A DNA stretch of 64,000 bases from Anaerolineae bacterium (lineage in GTDB: Bacteria > Chloroflexota > Anaerolineae > UBA4142), in the NCBI GenBank assembly GCA_034435055.1, contig DAOTXS010000024.1, positions 342 to 64,341 of the forward strand, given 5' to 3'. Position numbers and translations under genes: made by a program. The notes under the pieces were generated by a model, which was given only the letters and a program-made list of their open reading frames with translations, had not been told where the DNA came from and made no database searches. Shown one piece after another: positions 1,432 to 9,977 of the stretch (position 1 is the first letter of the stretch; every line of letters starts with the position of its first letter).

Positions 1432-1959
1432 TTACGGGCTGGGGATGCGGGGACCGGATTTGCCGATGTATTTGATGCGCGCCGAGTTCACCATGATCGC
1501 ATCTTGTTCGATGATGTACTTGCGATTGGATTCCAACATAACAACTGCTTTGGTGATCGGCAGAAAGGTGTGTTCAGGCACGGTTAGCACGCGCCGCAAA
1601 TCCAGATCGCCGGCGGTGTGCAGTGTGCCGCGCACTTCCATTCCCTCCATCACCAGAAAAACATCGTGCGCTTCTTTTTTGACATACCCCGAAAATCGAT
1701 GTCCGGGCGGAATAGCAGTTTGCGGTGGTTCAAAAGCCGCCACCACCCACAACTTGGGCACCACTGCCGCGGGATGTTTTTGCAAAATCTTACCCGGCTC
1801 ATCCAACCGCGCGACGGAAGCATCGAGCAAACTTACCGCGGTCTCGCGCCGATCATTCAGAAAATCGGACAAGCGTTGCCCGCGAAATAACAATTCACCG
1901 GCAATCGAATGATTTGCCGTCAACAGAACCACACTGTATCGAACTCGCTCTTCAGCCAT
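1432..1959 (-). CDS. Hypothetical cytoplasmic protein
   Basis: Open frame from ATG 1959 (MAEERVRYSVVLLT..); beta-rich, two loosely similar halves; divergent from sufC. Confidence 0.7.
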   Translation of the reverse strand: MAEERVRYSVVLLTANHSIAGELLFRGQRLSDFLNDRRETAVSLLDASVARLDEPGKILQKHPAAVVPKLWVVAAFEPPQTAIPPGHRFSGYVKKEAHDVFLVMEGMEVRGTLHTAGDLDLRRVLTVPEHTFLPITKAVVMLESNRKYIIEQDAIMVNSARIKYIGKSGPRIPSP

Positions 1960-2087
1960 TGGGCATATTCTATGTCCACCGCGCCTGATTGTCAATTAAC
2001 CGATAGTCCTCCGCTTGTCCATCTCTGGCTTGGAATTCTAACCATTTCTTTATCGGTAATTTCGTATTCTTATACCGCTTTTACAGT

Positions 2088-2116
2088 TTGCAAATAGAAT
2101 GGTCTTGGTTTAAGAT
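2088..2116 (+). promoter_or_regulatory. Putative sigma70-type promoter of suf operon
   Basis: TTGCAA (2088-2093) - 17 nt - TAAGAT (2111-2116). Confidence 0.55.
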
Positions 2117-2129
2117 ATGTGTGCAAAAT

Positions 2130-2148
2130 ATCACGTAGCTTACGTGAT
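2130..2148. promoter_or_regulatory. Putative operator palindrome
   Basis: ATCACGTA-GCT-TACGTGAT, perfect 8-bp inverted repeat between promoter and sufC RBS. Confidence 0.55.
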
Positions 2149-2178
2149 TGACAATTCTTTTAGGAGAAGCAGAACGAC

Positions 2179-2946
2179 ATGACGGCTCATCTTGAAATCC
2201 GCGACCTCCACGTTTCCGTTGAAGGCAAAGAAATTATCAAGGGCATCGATCTGAAAATCAATCGAGGCGAAATTCACGCGATTATGGGACCGAACGGTTC
2301 TGGCAAATCAACACTCGCCAACACGATTGCCGGGCATCCCAAGTACGAAATCACGCAGGGCGATATTCTGTACAAAGGTGAAAGTATTCTAGAGTGGGGA
2401 GCCGACGAACGCGCGCAAAAAGGAATTTTTCTCGCGTTCCAGTATCCAATGGCGATTCCTGGCGTAACGGTTGCCAACTTTCTCCGCACGGCACTCAACT
2501 CCAAACGCAAAGCGACCGGCACGAACGGCGATTCTAAAGCGATCAGTATTCCAGAATTCCGCAAATTGATGCGCGAAAAAATGGCGTTGTTGAAACTCGA
2601 AGATGCTTTTGCAACCCGCTACATCAACGATGGTTTTTCTGGCGGCGAGAAAAAACGCGTCGAGATTTTGCAAATGGCGGTCTTGAATCCGGAACTCGCT
2701 GTGCTCGATGAAACCGATTCCGGGCTCGACATCGACGCCTTGCGCATCGTCTCCGAAGGCGTGAATGCGATTGCCGGACCCAACATCGGCGTCTTGATGA
2801 TCACGCACTATCAACGGATTCTGAATTATATCAAACCACAGTTTATCCACGTTTTGGTAAATGGTCAGGTAGCCATGTCCGGCGGGCCGGAACTGGCGTT
2901 GCAATTGGAAGAAAAAGGGTACGATTGGCTCAAAGAGACAGTTTGA
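2179..2946 (+). CDS. sufC: Fe-S cluster assembly ATPase
   Basis: GPNGSGKST Walker [29 protein letters not shown]. Confidence 0.97.
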
Positions 2947-2978
2947 CGTTTCAACGTTAAACGGTGACAGGAGTTAGC

Positions 2979-4403
2979 ATGGCTGAATTCGATAAAAAAT
3001 CATTCGACATCGGCTCGTCGAGTTCGTTCTACAAAGAGAAATACGGATTTTACGATCCGGAAAAATACGTGTTCAAAGCGAAAAAGGGTTTGAACCGCGA
3101 AATCGTCGAAGAGATTTCGTGGATGAAAAACGAGCCGGATTGGATGCGGCAATTCCGTCTCCGCTCGCTCGAACTGTTCGAGAAAAAACCGATGCCGCAG
3201 TGGGGCGCGAATCTCAACGACATTGACTTTGACGACATTTACTATTTCTTGCGCGCAACCGATAAATCGGAACGCTCGTGGGATGAGGTCCCGGAAGACA
3301 TCAAGAACACGTTTGATCGGCTCGGTATTCCAGAAGCGGAAAAGAAATTCCTCGCCGGCGTTGGCGCGCAGTACGAATCCGAAGTCGTCTATCACAACAT
3401 CCAAGAGCATCTCAAGAAGCAAGGCGTCATCTTCCTGGGAATGGATCAAGCGCTCGCCGAACATCCCGACTTGGTCAAAAAATATTTCGGCACAGTGATT
3501 CCACCCGCCGACAACAAATTCGCGTCGTTGAACAGCGCGGTGTGGTCGGGTGGCTCGTTCATTTACGTCCCGCCGGGCATCCACGTCGAGATGCCGTTGC
3601 AAGCATATTTCCGTATCAACGCGCGTAACATGGGACAGTTTGAGCGCACGTTGATTATTGCGGATGAAGGATCGTATGTGCACTATGTCGAAGGATGCAC
3701 CGCGCCCACTTACTCTAGCGATTCACTTCACAGCGCGGTTGTCGAAATCATCGTCAATAAAGGTGCGCGCGTGCGTTATACCACAATTCAAAATTGGTCG
3801 TCGAATGTGTACAACCTGGTAACCAAGCGCGCGGTTGCGTACGAAGATGCCACAATGGAATGGGTCGATTGCAACCTGGGTTCCAAGACGACGATGAAAT
3901 ATCCGGCGGTGTATATGATGGGCAAAGGCGCGCACGGCGAAATCTTGTCCGTCGCGTTTGCCGGCAAAGGTCAGCACCAAGACGCCGGCGGCAAAGTCGT
4001 TCACGCCGCGCCGTACACTTCGTCGCTTGTCACATCGAAATCGATTAGCAAGGACGGCGGGCGCACCTCGTATCGTGGTTTGCTCAAAGTGTACCCGGGA
4101 TGCGAAGGGGTGAAATCGAATGTGCGTTGCGACGCGCTCTTGCTCGATGAAGATTCGCGCTCGGACACGTACCCGTACATCGAAGTGGATGAAGACAACG
4201 TGCAAATCGGGCATGAAGCAAGCGTGTCGAAAATCGGCGAAGAGCAACTCTTCTATTTGATGTCGCGCGGCTTGAGCGAAGCGGAAGCCGCGACGATGAT
4301 CGTCAGCGGTTTCATCGAACCCATCGTCAAGGAATTACCAATGGAATTCGCGGTCGAGATGAATCGGTTGATTCAATTGCAAATGGAAGGTTCAGTCGGC
4401 TAA
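2979..4403 (+). CDS. sufB: Fe-S cluster assembly protein SufB
   Basis: [36 protein letters not shown]; AGGAG RBS before ATG 2979. Confidence 0.97.
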
Positions 4404-4426
4404 AACGTTTGGAGTACAACAACACA

Positions 4427-5845
4427 ATGGCAAACAATGTGGCAACCTTGAAATTGGAAACCGGGTTTTCAAAGAACGCCATCGAAGCATTATCGAAATT
4501 CAAGCACGAACCGGATTGGGTGCGCGCGCGGCGGTTGGAAGCGTGGCACTTGTACGAAGAGACGCCAATGCCGGCGTCGAACGACGAATTGTGGCGGCGC
4601 ACGTCGGTCAAGGATTTGAAATTTGACAACGTGGTTCCATTTGCGCCGAACGAAAGCGTAAACGCGCTCGAGGTTTTGCCGGCGAAATTCAAACAAATTG
4701 CCAACGATGCAAATGCCGGCGGCGTGTTGGTGCAATACAATTCTGCCGGCGCGCACACGCGTCTCGCCGAGTCGCTCAAAAAGCGTGGTGTGATCTTTTG
4801 TGACCTGGATACTGCGATCCGCGAGCACCCGGAATTGGTCAAGCAATATTTCATGACCCAAGCAGTTACCTACACGGAAAATCGGTACGCCAGCGCCAAG
4901 CCATCCACAAGTTCCAGCGGGAAACACGAAGGCGGCGGGTACGGCGATACGATTGGCGATTTGAAATTCGCGGCGCTGCACGGCGCATTTTTTAGCGGCG
5001 GGACATTTTTGTACGTGCCGCGCGGCGTGATGATTGACGTGCCCTTGCAATCGCTCACGTATTTTAATTCGCCGGACTTGGCGATGTTCACGCACACGCT
5101 CGTCGTCGTGGAAGAAGGCGCGGCGGTCACGCTGATCGAGAATTACGCGTCGAAGGAAAACGTTGCGCGCCGATTCTCGAGCGGCGCGGTGGAATTGATT
5201 CTCAAGCCGGGCGCGCAGCTGCAATATTTTCATTTGCAAGATTTCGCGCGCGACGTGTGGCACTTTACTTCGCAGACGGCGTTGCTCGAACGCGATGCGT
5301 CGCTCACGTGGCTCAACGGCACCCTCGGCAGTCAATCGACCAAAGCATTTCTCGATTGCAAGTTTTTAGGCGCGGGCGCAAATGCAAAACTGCTCGGCTT
5401 TTTCTTCGGCGATGACAAACAGCATTTCGATCAGCACACGTTCCAAAATCACATCGTCGGTCACACCGAAAGCGATTTGCTCTACAAAGGTGCGTTGAAA
5501 GACACGGCCTATTCCGCGTTTCGTGGTTTGATTCGCGTCAACCCGGCGGCGCAACGTTCCGATGCGTACCAAGCCAATCGGAATATTTTACTCAGTCCCA
5601 AAGCGCACGCGGATTCGATTCCGGAATTGGAAATCGAAGCGAACGACGTGCGCTGCACGCACGGCGCGACGGTTGGGCCCATAGATCCCGAGCAAATCTT
5701 TTATTTGCAGACGCGCGGCATTCCCAAAGTTGAAGCGGAAAAAGTCATCGTCGAAGGATTCTTTGATCCGCTCATGCAAAAAATTCCGCTTGAATCGATT
5801 CGCGACGAATTGGCGCAAGCGATTCAAAGCAAAATTGGCGTCTAG
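4427..5845 (+). CDS. sufD: Fe-S cluster assembly protein SufD
   Basis: SufB paralog; PELEIEANDVRCTHGATVGPID..FYLQTRGI; follows sufB. Confidence 0.93.
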   Translation: MANNVATLKLETGFSKNAIEALSKFKHEPDWVRARRLEAWHLYEETPMPASNDELWRRTSVKDLKFDNVVPFAPNESVNALEVLPAKFKQIANDANAGGVLVQYNSAGAHTRLAESLKKRGVIFCDLDTAIREHPELVKQYFMTQAVTYTENRYASAKPSTSSSGKHEGGGYGDTIGDLKFAALHGAFFSGGTFLYVPRGVMIDVPLQSLTYFNSPDLAMFTHTLVVVEEGAAVTLIENYASKENVARRFSSGAVELILKPGAQLQYFHLQDFARDVWHFTSQTALLERDASLTWLNGTLGSQSTKAFLDCKFLGAGANAKLLGFFFGDDKQHFDQHTFQNHIVGHTESDLLYKGALKDTAYSAFRGLIRVNPAAQRSDAYQANRNILLSPKAHADSIPELEIEANDVRCTHGATVGPIDPEQIFYLQTRGIPKVEAEKVIVEGFFDPLMQKIPLESIRDELAQAIQSKIGV

Positions 5846-5927
5846 TGTTTTTGAGGAGGAGCGCGAGGGGTAGGAAATTTTCGCCTCCTCTCTTTGTCTC
5901 CTCCCGTTTTAGAAAGGATGGCTCGCG

Positions 5928-6770
5928 ATGAGTCAATATGCACATCCCGAAGTGTTGGTCGAAACCGACTGGGTCGCCCAACACTTGAACGATAAACATC
6001 TCCGGATTGTGGAATCGGACGAAGACATTTTGCTGTACGAGGTTGGACACATTCCCGGTGCGGTCAAGATCGATTGGCACGTCGATTTGCAGGACACGCT
6101 CGTGCGCGATTACATCAACAAACGTGGTTTTGAAACATTGCTCTCGAATCACGGCATTGCGAACGACACGACGGTTGTGTTCTACGGCGATAAAAATAAC
6201 TGGTGGGCGTGTTATGCGTTTTGGGTCTTTAAATTGTTCGGTCACGAAAAATGCTTGATTATGAACGGCGGTCGCCAAAAGTGGATTGCGGAAAATCGGC
6301 CGATGTCAAAAGATGTGCCAAGTTACCCGCGCACAAATTATGTGGCGAAAGAGCGCGACGACAAAAAGATTCGCGCGTTCCGCGACGATGTGATGAAACA
6401 CATCGGCAGCCGTAACCCGCTCGTCGATGTGCGGTCACCGCAAGAATACAGCGGCGAATTGTTGCATATGCCGGGTTATCCGCAGGAAGGCGCGTTGCGC
6501 GGCGGTCACATTCCCGGCGCCAAGAGCATTCCTTGGGCAAAAGCGGTGCGCGAAGACGGCACGTTCAAACCGGCAGACGAGTTGAAAGCGCTGTACGAAC
6601 CGCAAGGCATCACCGCCGATAAAGATGTGATTGCGTACTGCCGCATCGGCGAACGGTCGAGCCACACGTGGTTCGTGCTGACGTACTTGCTGGGCTATCC
6701 TCAAGTGCGCAATTACGATGGCTCGTGGACGGAGTGGGGCAATCTTGTCGGCGCGCCAATCGAGAAATAA
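5928..6770 (+). CDS. Tandem-domain rhodanese / thiosulfate sulfurtransferase
   Basis: GHIPGA in both domains, active-site [10 protein letters not shown]-terminal YDGSWTEWG. Confidence 0.95.
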
Positions 6771-6805
6771 TAAAGTTCAAAAATCACAACCTGAAACCTG
6801 CAACG

Positions 6806-7246
6806 ATGAATCGAAACGAATATATCGAATTCATTCTCGATCACTTTAACAATCCGCGCCATCAAGGCGTAATCGATGATCCCGATATTTTGGTGAACGG
6901 GGGCAACCCGGGCTGCGGTGATGTCGTCACGATGTACGTCAAAGTCGATAGCGAGAATCGCGTGGTCGATGTAAAATTCGAGGGGAGGGGTTGCACGATC
7001 AGCATGGCTGGCGCATCGCTCATTACGGAAATGGTTATCGGCAAAACGCTCAAAGAAATCGAAGAAATGCCGTACGCGCCGTTAATTGACCAAATGGGCG
7101 AAGATGTGGTAAAATCGCGACTGCGATGCGCGACACTGGGGATCGATACGCTCAAAGGCGGCGCGCGGGAATATCCTAGCCGCCAAGCCCTGGGGCAAAA
7201 ATTGATCCAGCCCATCGTGCTCGCGCACACGCTACCAACCGATTAA
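6806..7246 (+). CDS. sufU: SufU/IscU-family (NifU_N) scaffold or sulfur acceptor
   Basis: ILDHFNNPR, NPGCGD, GCTIS, RLRCATL (three Cys). Confidence 0.9.
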   Translation: MNRNEYIEFILDHFNNPRHQGVIDDPDILVNGGNPGCGDVVTMYVKVDSENRVVDVKFEGRGCTISMAGASLITEMVIGKTLKEIEEMPYAPLIDQMGEDVVKSRLRCATLGIDTLKGGAREYPSRQALGQKLIQPIVLAHTLPTD

Positions 7247-7280
7247 GCAATCCCAAAATTTTCCTCGAAAGGAGAACACA

Positions 7281-7586
7281 ATGGCGTACGTGATTGCTGA
7301 GCCGTGCATCGGTACCAAAGACACCGCGTGCGTGAACGTCTGTCCCGTGGACTGCATTCACCCGAAGAAAGACGAAAACTTCGAACCGGTGCAACAGCTG
7401 TATATCGATCCAGACACTTGCATCGATTGCGGCGCGTGTGTGCCCGAATGCCCCGTGAGTGCGATCTTCCCCGAACCCGATTTGAAGGACGAGTGGAAGT
7501 TCTTCACGGAGAAGAATGCCGATTATTACAAACTCTCAGCCGCCGATTTCGAAGCCAAGTGGAAATCGCCGGGCAAGACCCAGTAA
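7281..7586 (+). CDS. Ferredoxin (7Fe-type, [3Fe-4S]/[4Fe-4S])
   Basis: AYVIAEPCIGTKDTACVNVCPVDCI..CIDCGACVPECPV; GGAG RBS. Confidence 0.93.
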   Translation: MAYVIAEPCIGTKDTACVNVCPVDCIHPKKDENFEPVQQLYIDPDTCIDCGACVPECPVSAIFPEPDLKDEWKFFTEKNADYYKLSAADFEAKWKSPGKTQ

Positions 7587-7610
7587 CGGTATTCGCCTTG
7601 ATGGCATTTT

Positions 7611-7650
7611 GCAACCCCCGTCGGGAATCGTGGACGGGGGTTTGCCTTTT
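7611..7650 (+). terminator. Intrinsic terminator
   Basis: CCCCCGTC/GACGGGGG stem with GCAA/TTGC extension followed by CTTTT. Confidence 0.75.
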
Positions 7651-7685
7651 GCGTGTGGTACGGATAGAATAAGGAAAAGAATAAT

Positions 7686-7746
7686 TCCACGAAGAACTTT
7701 AAGGAACTCTAAAAAATCTTTTGTGATCCTGCGTGTTCTTGGTGGA
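7686..7746. repeat. Intergenic hairpin repeat
   Basis: TCCACGAAGAAC ... GTTCTTGGTGGA (1 mismatch). Confidence 0.6.
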
Positions 7747-7761
7747 TGATATGAGGTTACA

Positions 7762-8100
7762 ATGACCGAATCGAATCTGGCGGGACACAAGCCCGCGCCC
7801 GAATATCCGGAAAATAGTCCGGAAGCGATCATCAAACAAGCACTCCGCACCGTCAAAGACCCGGAGATTGGTTTGGATGTAATTCAACTGGGTCTGATCC
7901 GTGAAATCAATCTCGGTCTCGACGAGCCAGAAATCAAGATGATGTTGACGACGCCGTTCTGCCCGTACGGCGGTTGGCTCATTCAAAGCGTCCGGGATGC
8001 GGCGGAACACGTCGCCGGCAAGAAGATGAAGGTTACCGTGATGCCGGATCTCTGGGATCCCAATTATATGGAAGACCCCGGGTTGCTGATGGGTTGGTAA
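7762..8100 (+). CDS. DUF59 metal-sulfur cluster assembly factor (SufT/PaaD-like)
   Basis: LRTVKDPEIGLDVIQLGLIR, MMLTTPFCP, PDLWDP. Confidence 0.92.
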   Translation: MTESNLAGHKPAPEYPENSPEAIIKQALRTVKDPEIGLDVIQLGLIREINLGLDEPEIKMMLTTPFCPYGGWLIQSVRDAAEHVAGKKMKVTVMPDLWDPNYMEDPGLLMGW

Positions 8101-8991
8101 GTGAATCAATTCGTCAAGCCGATGCAGGCATTTCCCGGCTTGGAATCTTTTGCCCGCACGATCCGTTTGCCCCACGCCGGATTGACGCTTTACATTTACG
8201 ATGCCGGCGACAAGCACGCGTCGCCCATTCTGCTCATTCACGGACTCGGCGATGAGGCGGATACGTGGCGGCATTTGATTCTGCCGCTTGCCGCAACTCA
8301 TCGCGTCATCGCACTCGATTTGCCGGGATTTGGTCGCAGCGACAAGCCGAACGTCGCGTACACGATTCCATTTTTCCAAAACACGCTAATCGAATTGCTC
8401 GACACGCTGGCAATTCAATCTGCGATGCTCGTCGGTCATTCGCTTGGCGCAATTATGGCGCACGCTATCGCATTGAATCACCCGGCACGCGTGAATCGAT
8501 TGGTGTTGGTGGGTGGCGCGCTGGTTGCATCGGTGCAAAAAATCAACCTTGTCGCGTTGTTGTTTCTAATTCCCGGCTTGGGCGAATGGCTCTACAATCG
8601 ATTGCGCAACGATCCGCAAGCCGCGTATCGCACTCTCGCGCCGTACTATCATCGCATCGATGATTTGCCCGAAGCGGATCGTACATTCTTGTTCCAACGC
8701 GTCAACGAACGTGTGTGGAGTGATGAACAGCGCCGCGCGTTTCTCTCGACCTTACGCAATCTCGTGCGTTGGATTCCCGGTCAGCAACGTGATTTACAAT
8801 CGCGCTTGGCATGCTCGTCTGTGCCAACGCTCGCGATCTGGGGGGAGGATGACCAAATCAACGATGCCGAGAATGGTAAAGCGTTGGTCAAACTCCAACC
8901 GACTGCGCGATTGGTGATTGTGCCAAACGCCGGACACAATGTCCACCAAGAAAATCCGGGCGCGGTGTTGGACGCGTTACACACTGAATAG
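8101..8991 (+). CDS. Alpha/beta hydrolase
   Basis: LIHGLG, DLPGFGRS, GHSLG nucleophile elbow, GEDD, AGHNVH. Confidence 0.92.
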   Translation: MNQFVKPMQAFPGLESFARTIRLPHAGLTLYIYDAGDKHASPILLIHGLGDEADTWRHLILPLAATHRVIALDLPGFGRSDKPNVAYTIPFFQNTLIELLDTLAIQSAMLVGHSLGAIMAHAIALNHPARVNRLVLVGGALVASVQKINLVALLFLIPGLGEWLYNRLRNDPQAAYRTLAPYYHRIDDLPEADRTFLFQRVNERVWSDEQRRAFLSTLRNLVRWIPGQQRDLQSRLACSSVPTLAIWGEDDQINDAENGKALVKLQPTARLVIVPNAGHNVHQENPGAVLDALHTE

Positions 8992-8993
8992 TT

Positions 8994-9030
8994 ACAGAGG
9001 TCATAGAGAAAAACTTTCTATGTCCTCGGT
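8994..9030. repeat. Intergenic hairpin repeat
   Basis: ACAGAGGTCATAGA ... TCTATGTCCTCGGT (2 mismatches). Confidence 0.5.
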
Positions 9031-9044
9031 GGCAAAAAATAACC

Positions 9045-9977
9045 ATGTCCAAACGCCGCATCTTGCTCCTTGTATTGTTTATTCTCGCCGCGCTAGTTGT
9101 GATCCCCAACACGCGTTCACTGTACGAGGGCATCTGGTTTTATTTGCGCGATGCCGTGACGTACAATCCGTACGCAAGTATTCCGGTCAACCGCGATGGT
9201 CGTCACGGTTCGCTCTACGATCTCAGCCGGCTTCGCAATGTTGAGCGTTTGCAGTATCTCCACCGTACACTCGATTCGCTAAATCTCTCCGTCACGCCAA
9301 TTGCAATTCCGAATTCATCTTTGCCCAACCTCTTCGTTCGATTTGATAGCGCGGCGCAACCGCTCGTCATTTTTTCCGCGCACTACGACAAACTTTTCGA
9401 CGAGGCAGAATATCAGGGTGCATCGGACAACACGGCAGCGGTGAGTGTTCTGCTCGCGGCAATTGATGAACTGGCGCGGCGCGGCGATGCCGGCAATCGC
9501 GCGTTCCTCTTTACCGGCGAAGAAGAAACCGGTTTGCGCGGCGCGGCGGCGTTCGTCGAGTACGCGCGCGCGAATAAAATAGCGATCCGCGAGATCATCA
9601 GCTTGGACAACCTCGGGCGCGACAAACTGGCCATTCGTCCGTCCGCGCCGATTCCCGGTTTTGTGTTCAACATTCCTTGGCTCGGCGACTTGGTGTTCGA
9701 TGGACGCGAGATTCGTCCCAGTCCGGCGTTTCCGTTGGCAAATTCCCGGCTCACGCAAGCACTCTTGCGCGTGCAACCGGAGATTATCGTCTACGAACGT
9801 TTTACCGCGCTCGGCGATTCGAACGTGTTTCAAGCGAACGGCATCGATACCGTCATGATCAGCGCGAGCAATATGTATTATCTCGAACAAACCTGGCACA
9901 CCTACGCCGACCGCTGGGAATTGATCGACGAGCGCAATCTTGAACGCGCACTCGATTTGATTTTAAATTACCGGTAG
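9045..9977 (+). CDS. M28-family metallopeptidase with N-terminal membrane anchor
   Basis: SAHYD, GASDNTAAV, FTGEEETGLRGA, GDSNVF, WHTYAD. Confidence 0.9.
   Translation: MSKRRILLLVLFILAALVVIPNTRSLYEGIWFYLRDAVTYNPYASIPVNRDGRHGSLYDLSRLRNVERLQYLHRTLDSLNLSVTPIAIPNSSLPNLFVRFDSAAQPLVIFSAHYDKLFDEAEYQGASDNTAAVSVLLAAIDELARRGDAGNRAFLFTGEEETGLRGAAAFVEYARANKIAIREIISLDNLGRDKLAIRPSAPIPGFVFNIPWLGDLVFDGREIRPSPAFPLANSRLTQALLRVQPEIIVYERFTALGDSNVFQANGIDTVMISASNMYYLEQTWHTYADRWELIDERNLERALDLILNYR

Follow-up and report, generated by a model that had tools for sequence, protein, structure and literature searches.

A suf operon with a rhodanese–SufU cassette in an Anaerolineae bacterium, separated from its sufS–sufU2 genes

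To our knowledge, the characterised bacterial SUF systems of iron-sulfur (Fe-S) cluster assembly all start from cysteine by way of the desulfurase SufS. The subject of this study is a suf operon without a desulfurase gene, found in a 64,000-nucleotide stretch (the window) of contig DAOTXS010000024.1, here called C24, from an Anaerolineae bacterium of the Chloroflexota. In this operon sufD is followed by genes for a tandem-domain rhodanese and a SufU-like protein, SufU1, and an earlier note on the same DNA had proposed that the rhodanese takes the place of SufS. We compared the operon with the rest of its genome, with 40 related genomes and with rhodanese loci from other phyla. The comparisons indicate that the operon was cut by a rearrangement that carried sufS away, and that the rhodanese and SufU1 form a cassette that coexists with SufS, probably as an additional entry route for sulfur.

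The operon of the window and the whereabouts of sufS

Genes were called by Pfam and NCBIfam profile searches, and all coordinates without a contig or locus label refer to the window. The operon occupies positions 2179-8100, exactly the span that the earlier note had given, and the profiles bear out the order listed there of seven genes, all on the plus strand. The first three belong to the SUF core, each exceeding its equivalog cut-off: sufC, encoding the Fe-S assembly ATPase (2179-2946; TIGR01978, 349.7 bits against 212.8), sufB (2964-4403; TIGR01980, 733.8 bits against 346.4, with a SUFBD_core domain) and sufD (4409-5845; TIGR01981, 263.3 bits against 222). The sufD start codon is uncertain by a few codons, and alignment with relatives begins at residue ~7. 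The rhodanese gene (5928-6770) encodes a protein of 280 residues of the SseA/CysA type with two PF00581 stretches, and sufU1 (6806-7246) a protein of 146 residues with the NifU_N fold (PF01592, E 4e-32). A gene for an FdxA-like ferredoxin (7281-7586), identified by Fer4 families and motifs and scoring 96.5 bits with NF045480, which is below cut-off, precedes the last gene of the truncated operon, which encodes a DUF59/SufT-like Fe-S maturation factor (7762-8100; PF01883, E 8e-13).

Two alternative reading frames were rejected. With a GTG start at 6668 the SufU-like frame would extend into the rhodanese gene, and the alignment with relatives begins at the Met1 encoded by the ATG at 6806; an overlapping frame at 7304-7672 (122 residues), set against the ferredoxin frame, has no family match. 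A promoter and terminator scan of 1900-9100 found terminator-like sites no more often than in shuffled sequence and no internal terminator between genes. An apparent hairpin in the sufD-rhodanese spacer (5846-5927) was likewise discarded, its z-score of -0.55 being no better than that of shuffles.

The lack of a desulfurase gene in this copy of the operon, which the earlier note had also reported, extends to the whole of C24, where a search with PF00266 (Aminotran_5) gave no match. The genome, however, has a SufS. In the window genome (G000), a metagenome-type assembly of 98 contigs that is 96% complete, the whole-genome search returned 12 Aminotran_5 matches, the top one a bona fide SufS on contig C47 (77341-78573, minus strand) that scores 602.5 bits with TIGR01979 against a cut-off of 475.1. 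It is followed directly by a gene for a second SufU-like protein, SufU2 (142 residues; TIGR01994, 120.6 bits), and the sufS-sufU2 pair together covers C47:76977-78573. In total the genome holds one sufB/sufD pair, that of the window, and two NifU_N genes. The further Aminotran_5 enzymes include a NifS/IscS-like protein on C41 and an SclA-like lyase on C47. The latter, a homologue of selenocysteine lyase/cysteine desulfurase (TIGR01977, 462 bits), has as its neighbour a putative selenium transporter of the YedE family (TIGR04112, 498 bits), at C47:42234-44706, ~33 kb from the relocated sufS, and the two are likely a selenium-handling pair.

The arrangement of the relatives accounts for the separation. 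Explicit maps of G001 and G002, which belong to the same genus as the window genome, and of G012 give nine genes in the order sufC-sufB-sufD-rhodanese-sufU1-fdx-DUF59-sufS-sufU2, where fdx is the ferredoxin gene. The DUF59 gene that precedes sufS in these three is orthologous to that of the window, and in relatives it is followed, after a spacer of ~55-110 bp, by sufS-sufU2. At the nucleotide level the window matches G001/G002 as far as the stop codon of DUF59 (breakpoint 8098..8103). On C47 the homology sets in again with the ribosome-binding site of sufS, which follows an unrelated gene for a BhcA-like aminotransferase. In tblastx, the sequence that follows the operon in G002 and G012 is colinear with the C47 block, which comprises sufS-sufU2 and ~5 kb downstream. 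Each of the two junctions lies inside a long contig (C24, >64 kb; C47, 123 kb). Since the loss of synteny falls precisely in the DUF59|sufS spacer, we conclude from the comparison that an ancestral nine-gene operon was cut there and that sufS-sufU2 moved with their downstream genes to another locus, which is why the window has no desulfurase. The proposal of a rhodanese in place of SufS is thus wrong, given the pair on C47 and the two congeners with both modules in one operon. A comparable internal split was seen in none of the 40 relatives searched.

Directly after the DUF59 gene the window continues with an alpha/beta hydrolase gene (8101-8991) unrelated to the operon. Upstream of the operon lie pdxS/pdxT, a STAS gene and a DUF6812 gene on the minus strand (1432-1995). 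This last gene is divergent from sufC, and an 11/12 match to a sigma-70-like promoter is located at 1967-1995. No gene for a SufR/Rrf2-type regulator adjoins this suf operon.

The cassette in related genomes

Rhodanese orthologues of 69-89% identity are present in 25 of the 40 relatives, and in all of these except G036 a SufU1 orthologue follows directly. Wherever the contig reaches, sufD precedes the rhodanese-SufU1 pair and (fdx)-DUF59 comes next. Recurrence in 24 of 25 rhodanese-holding relatives argues that the arrangement is not due to chance. In 21 relatives sufS follows the rhodanese on one contig, no more than ~3 kb away and in the same orientation. G018 and G022 are interrupted by a contig end, and the search of G016, a genome 78% complete, gave no sufS.

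In seven relatives that lack the rhodanese, six of the same family (G005, G007, G009, G014, G020 and G021) and one of the sister family (G026), the operon reads sufCBD-(fdx)-DUF59-sufS, with sufD directly before fdx/DUF59, and none of the seven has a SufU1 orthologue. With SufU1 as query the scores fall into two ranges: 127-289 bits in the 24 genomes with an adjacent rhodanese and in no others, and 56-97 bits, of the SufU2 type, elsewhere. Because the seven retain the remaining order, the comparison identifies the rhodanese and sufU1 as a facultative cassette of two genes, inserted after sufD and ahead of fdx/DUF59 and coexisting with sufS-sufU2. The ferredoxin gene also occurs in the operons of rhodanese-free relatives, and neither it nor the DUF59 gene is specific to the cassette. 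The clade-typical form is sufC-sufB-sufD-rhodanese-sufU1-(fdx)-DUF59-sufS-sufU2, of which the window holds the 5' part. As a separate observation, the sufD orthologues of G019 (C29:12620-14005) and G021 (C124:12372-13793) each contain one in-frame TAG, which may be a sequencing error, a pseudogene mutation or a site of readthrough.

At least two families, and beyond them a class-level relative, share the insertion site at protein identities of 46-89%, and the rhodanese-sufU adjacency recurs in other phyla outside suf operons as well. The earlier note had named, as grounds that together would refute its proposal, a sufS elsewhere in the genome, a lack of conserved adjacency and a failure of transfer to SufU; a sufS is indeed present, and the adjacency is conserved.

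SufU1 and the rhodanese family

Among the loci, 51 NifU_N sequences, 40 adjoining a rhodanese and 11 adjoining SufS, separate into two clades with branch support of 100/100, and each neighbour label requires a single change on the tree. By this phylogeny SufU1, whose neighbour is always the rhodanese, is a distinct paralogue that co-occurs with the rhodanese only; SufU2 adjoins SufS. The two proteins also differ in their best solved matches, which for SufU1 are the IscU/NifU proteins of Aquifex, Archaeoglobus and Methanothrix, matched colinearly, and for SufU2 the Bacillus subtilis SufU (1XJS/5XT5). Their motifs are GGNPGCGD, GxGCTIS and sR-R-C-A-T-L in SufU1 and NPlCGD, GCAISqAsAS and R-x-K-C-A-L-L in SufU2. 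Both paralogues lack the IscU histidine before the third cysteine, the LPPVK motif and the long Bacillus-type insertion, with 45 residues from the second to the third cysteine.

SufU1 has the ligand set Cys37 (codon 6914-6916), Asp39, Cys63 and Arg107-Cys108, that is, the SufU pattern of Cys/Asp/Cys/Cys without a histidine before the third cysteine, a position at which 42 of 43 clade members have Arg or Lys. It passes the SufU cut-off of TIGR01994 marginally (95.7 against 92.5 bits), with a match that covers model positions 5-86 of 137 only. In two other respects it departs from a typical SufU: it is encoded beside a rhodanese rather than SufS, and the Cys63-Cys108 segment is colinear with IscU and has none of the insertion noted for Bacillus-type SufU (PMC10216065). 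B. subtilis SufU also carries additional residues here when aligned with SufU2 of the window genome. Nor is SufU1 a typical IscU/NifU scaffold, having Arg in place of His, no LPPVK and a TIGR01999 score of 73.2 bits against a cut-off of 192.4.

Cys37 is invariant in all 43 sequences of the SufU1 clade, and Asp39, Cys63 and Cys108 are each present in 39. The four remaining copies, all from Rubrobacteraceae and all adjoining a rhodanese (L065:7850-8224, L067:7854-8225, L082:5044-5433 and L084:7893-8273), have lost Asp39, Cys63 and Cys108 to Gly, Asp and Asn/His, respectively, and keep Cys37; judged by residues, they look like metal-free, single-cysteine derivatives of the SufU fold. By alignment Cys37 occupies the position of Cys41 of B. 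subtilis SufU, which, like Cys40 of the Mycobacterium tuberculosis protein, is the site of persulfuration (PMC10216065). Because these copies keep only the acceptor cysteine, they argue for a role of SufU1 as a sulfur carrier and against one as a scaffold. Independently of these residues, a C-terminal tail of ~25 residues (SufU1 residues ~123-146; window 7172-7246) is conserved where SufU1 is embedded in suf genes in families f1 and f2, and does not occur in stand-alone or more distant copies.

The rhodanese has the features of a tandem rhodanese, with two PF00581 domains and the catalytic cysteine in the six-residue loop of the C-terminal domain. Cys238 (codon 6639-6641) lies in a CRIGERS loop, residues 238-244, and C238-S244 is invariant in 13 orthologues. 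The matches in the Protein Data Bank are 1UAR (E 7e-132), SseA (3HZU, E 1e-113) and the CysA-type structures 3AAX/3HWI (E ~3e-98); the NCBIfam equivalog for 3-mercaptopyruvate sulfurtransferase gives 126.5 bits, below its cut-off of 250. A 16-residue loop at residues ~179-194 is nearly invariant in orthologues and deleted in two aligned paralogous rhodaneses, one on C40 of the window genome and one of relative G013. To judge from the numbering, it would correspond to the 185-201 loop of SseA, which a study of M. tuberculosis implicated in contact with a SufE-like activator (PMC12375888). A SufE (PF02657) was not found in the window genome.

Scanning 185,579 species genomes gave ~600 relatives of the rhodanese, and the loci of the best 80 (62-76% identity) were studied; the phyla represented include Chloroflexota, Actinomycetota, Gemmatimonadota, Verrucomicrobiota, Planctomycetota and Deinococcota. 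The scan also assigns the organism of the window to Chloroflexota, as Anaerolineae-like. Embedded in suf genes, the order sufCBD-rhodanese-sufU1-sufS-sufU2(-DUF59) is found in L051, L060 and L086, and sufD-rhodanese-sufU1-DUF59-sufS-sufU2 in L048; in L075 rhodanese-sufU1 is divergent from sufCBDSU. Stand-alone rhodanese-SufU1 pairs with no suf genes occur in Rubrobacteraceae, Thermomicrobium and several metagenome-assembled genomes. The gene directly after the rhodanese is SufE-like in ~29 of the best 80 loci and SufU1-like in ~16, the SufE search having used as query the SufE-like gene of L057 (PF02657, E 2e-25). On a tree of 105 rhodaneses (FastTree, local supports only) the partner labels SufU1 and SufE each undergo six or more changes, which indicates that one orthologous rhodanese family alternates between two acceptor folds, both of which are used by SufS.

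The remaining loci of the best 80 have other genes downstream, for an OsmC-like protein (four or more Gemmatimonadota), a DUF4395 protein, a PALP enzyme and further products. The L057 locus itself, from a metagenome-assembled genome labelled Thermodesulfobacteriota, has rhodanese-SufE-SufU1 (7001-8734), with both acceptor types behind one rhodanese. In the Gemmatimonadota loci L089, L108, L117 and L123 an OsmC-like gene of the peroxiredoxin fold, rather than SufE or SufU, comes after the rhodanese, and the rhodanese gene of Thermomicrobium has an OsmC-like gene just ahead of it (L076:6337-6879). On an uncultured Chloroflexi contig (L069:2963-3895) the rhodanese has sufB ~0.5 kb upstream and is followed by a PALP-family gene resembling cysteine synthase.

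Role of the cassette and comparison with known systems

The cassette is likely an auxiliary entry of sulfane sulfur into SUF. In the mechanism we propose, the rhodanese would form a persulfide on Cys238 from a sulfane donor, which could be thiosulfate, 3-mercaptopyruvate or a low-molecular-weight persulfide; this sulfur would pass to Cys37 of SufU1, and SufU1 would hand it to the SufBC2D scaffold as a second, cysteine-sparing input parallel to that from SufS to SufU2. The ferredoxin is a possible electron donor, and may supply electrons that reduce zero-valent sulfur (S0) to sulfide. With regard to the donor, M. tuberculosis CysA2 is, by the title of its description, a dual thiosulfate/3-mercaptopyruvate sulfurtransferase (PMC6856128). 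Taken whole, an auxiliary rhodanese-SufU1 input beside SufS-SufU2, in an operon that was split by rearrangement, is on balance the explanation we believe. Comparative evidence thus upholds the earlier note in treating the rhodanese-SufU link as meaningful, and its cysteine-independent input, which fails as a replacement for SufS, is conceivable as an auxiliary route only.

Several points weigh against this explanation. Which way the sulfur flows, and from what donor, is our inference, and the split is known from one metagenome-type assembly, so that an assembly chimera is possible. The cassette is dispensable, since seven close relatives manage without it, and SufU1 is not an obligatory partner of the rhodanese, as L049 and L054 have sufCBD-rhodanese-sufS without it. 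In addition, the authors who studied SseA with its SufE-like partner argue that the pair acts outside Fe-S assembly, in cyanide or redox handling (PMC12375888). The main rival builds on some of the same facts and holds that the cassette is no donor but buffers or regulates sulfane sulfur beside or downstream of SufS, accepting or removing excess persulfide from SufS, SufU2 or SufBCD, or detoxifying sulfane sulfur, and that the chief function of SufU1 is to activate the rhodanese allosterically. In its favor, Rv3284 has a dissociation constant of ~3 uM for SseA and raises its activity fourfold (PMC12375888), cysteine desulfurases are reported to be able to load rhodaneses, as ABA3 does STR18 in plants (PMC8931425), the rhodanese directly precedes sufS in L049 and L054, and the Gemmatimonadota partner is an OsmC-like redox protein. 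A mere activator would need no acceptor cysteine, yet Cys37 is retained throughout the SufU1 clade, even by copies stripped of the other ligands, and the cassette is placed between scaffold and maturation genes. We therefore regard persulfide buffering or removal as unlikely, while granting it a real share of the probability.

It is improbable that SufU1 is instead an IscU-type Fe-S scaffold or carrier that forms, with the rhodanese, a small independent assembly line inside the suf operon. The colinear, full-length matches to IscU/NifU scaffolds (Aquifex 9WFY/2Z7E, A. fulgidus 4EB5), the IscU-like spacing of 45 residues and the presence of three cysteines and the aspartate would suit such a role, but the histidine of IscU is replaced by Arg or Lys in nearly the whole clade, LPPVK is missing, the GCTIS and R-C-A-T-L motifs are SufU-like, the TIGR01999 score is far below cut-off and the Rubrobacteraceae members do without three of the four ligands. 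A further view, that the adjacency means nothing for Fe-S assembly and that a housekeeping thiosulfate or cyanide sulfurtransferase hitch-hiked into the operon with a small partner, could point to the many orthologues outside Chloroflexota, most of them without suf neighbours, and to the close relatives in which the cassette is missing. The shared insertion site across families, and the fact that SufE-like and SufU-like partners alike have folds of Fe-S sulfur carriers, make it very improbable. As for the rhodanese being the sole, cysteine-independent sulfur donor of this SUF system in place of SufS, the operon copy without a desulfurase and the location of the rhodanese at the sufS position of sufCBDSU operons gave the idea its appeal; with a bona fide sufS-sufU2 in the same genome, both modules in one operon of the congeners, an absence here that coincides with a rearrangement breakpoint, and SufS in all 24 cassette-bearing relatives except the incomplete G016, it is scarcely credible.

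The auxiliary sulfane-sulfur route that we favor has a wider extension, which we put forward tentatively and think possible though doubtful: SseA/CysA-type rhodaneses may be a second class of sulfur donor for SUF that, as SufS does, works with a SufE- or SufU-type transpersulfidase as its dedicated acceptor, and the Chloroflexota cassette would then feed sulfur from thiosulfate or persulfides to SufBC2D independently of cysteine and SufS. Whichever role applies, a conserved rhodanese with its own SufU paralogue in otherwise complete suf operons offers a concrete case in which a second entry of sulfur, or a persulfide-buffering step, could be tested. The case also carries a caution, in that what looked like a suf operon lacking SufS proved to be a normal operon in rearranged form. 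In the literature searched, subscription papers being outside its scope, we found no description of a rhodanese within a suf operon or of a rhodanese-SufU pair, and a 2026 review of the sulfur sources for Fe-S clusters mentions neither rhodanese nor thiosulfate (PMC13066941).

Among known systems, the closest parallel to the cassette is M. tuberculosis SseA (Rv3283), which binds and is activated by the neighboring SufE-like Rv3284 (FEBS Lett 2025, PMC12375888). The two rhodaneses belong to the same tandem family and share the CRIGERS loop and an extra loop before the catalytic domain, and both genes have a small Fe-S-type sulfur-carrier gene directly downstream, one that is SufE-like in more than a quarter of the orthologous loci. 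Here, in contrast, the partner is NifU_N/SufU-like and not SufE, and the pair lies inside a sufCBD operon, whereas Rv3283-Rv3284 is located outside the M. tuberculosis suf operon. The alternation of SufE-like and SufU-like partners widens this single published case to a cross-phylum pattern. The closest solved relatives of the rhodanese are 1UAR of Thermus thermophilus HB8 and CysA2/CysA3 of M. tuberculosis (3AAX, 3HWI); unlike the window, the one Thermaceae locus examined, that of Thermus tenuipuniceus (L083), has neither suf nor SufU neighbours.

With the SufS-SufU systems of Bacillus and Mycobacterium (sufCDSUB, sufCBDSU) the window genome shares the SufBCD genes, an acceptor of the SufU type with Cys/Asp/Cys/Cys and its cysteine in NPxCGD, and, on C47, a canonical SufS-SufU2 pair. 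It differs in that the neighbor of SufU1 is a rhodanese and not a pyridoxal phosphate enzyme, in that SufU1 stands in a clade apart from SufU2, and, from Bacillus SufU, in the missing insertion of both paralogues. The actinobacterial and Chloroflexota suf operons with a ferredoxin or Rieske protein and SufT (DUF59) resemble that of the window in combining sufCBD with a small redox protein and DUF59, and are distinguished from it by the added rhodanese-SufU1 cassette and by the detachment of sufS-sufU2 in the window genome. The operon is, then, a SUF operon with an accessory sulfurtransferase cassette, not a SUF operon that does without SufS.

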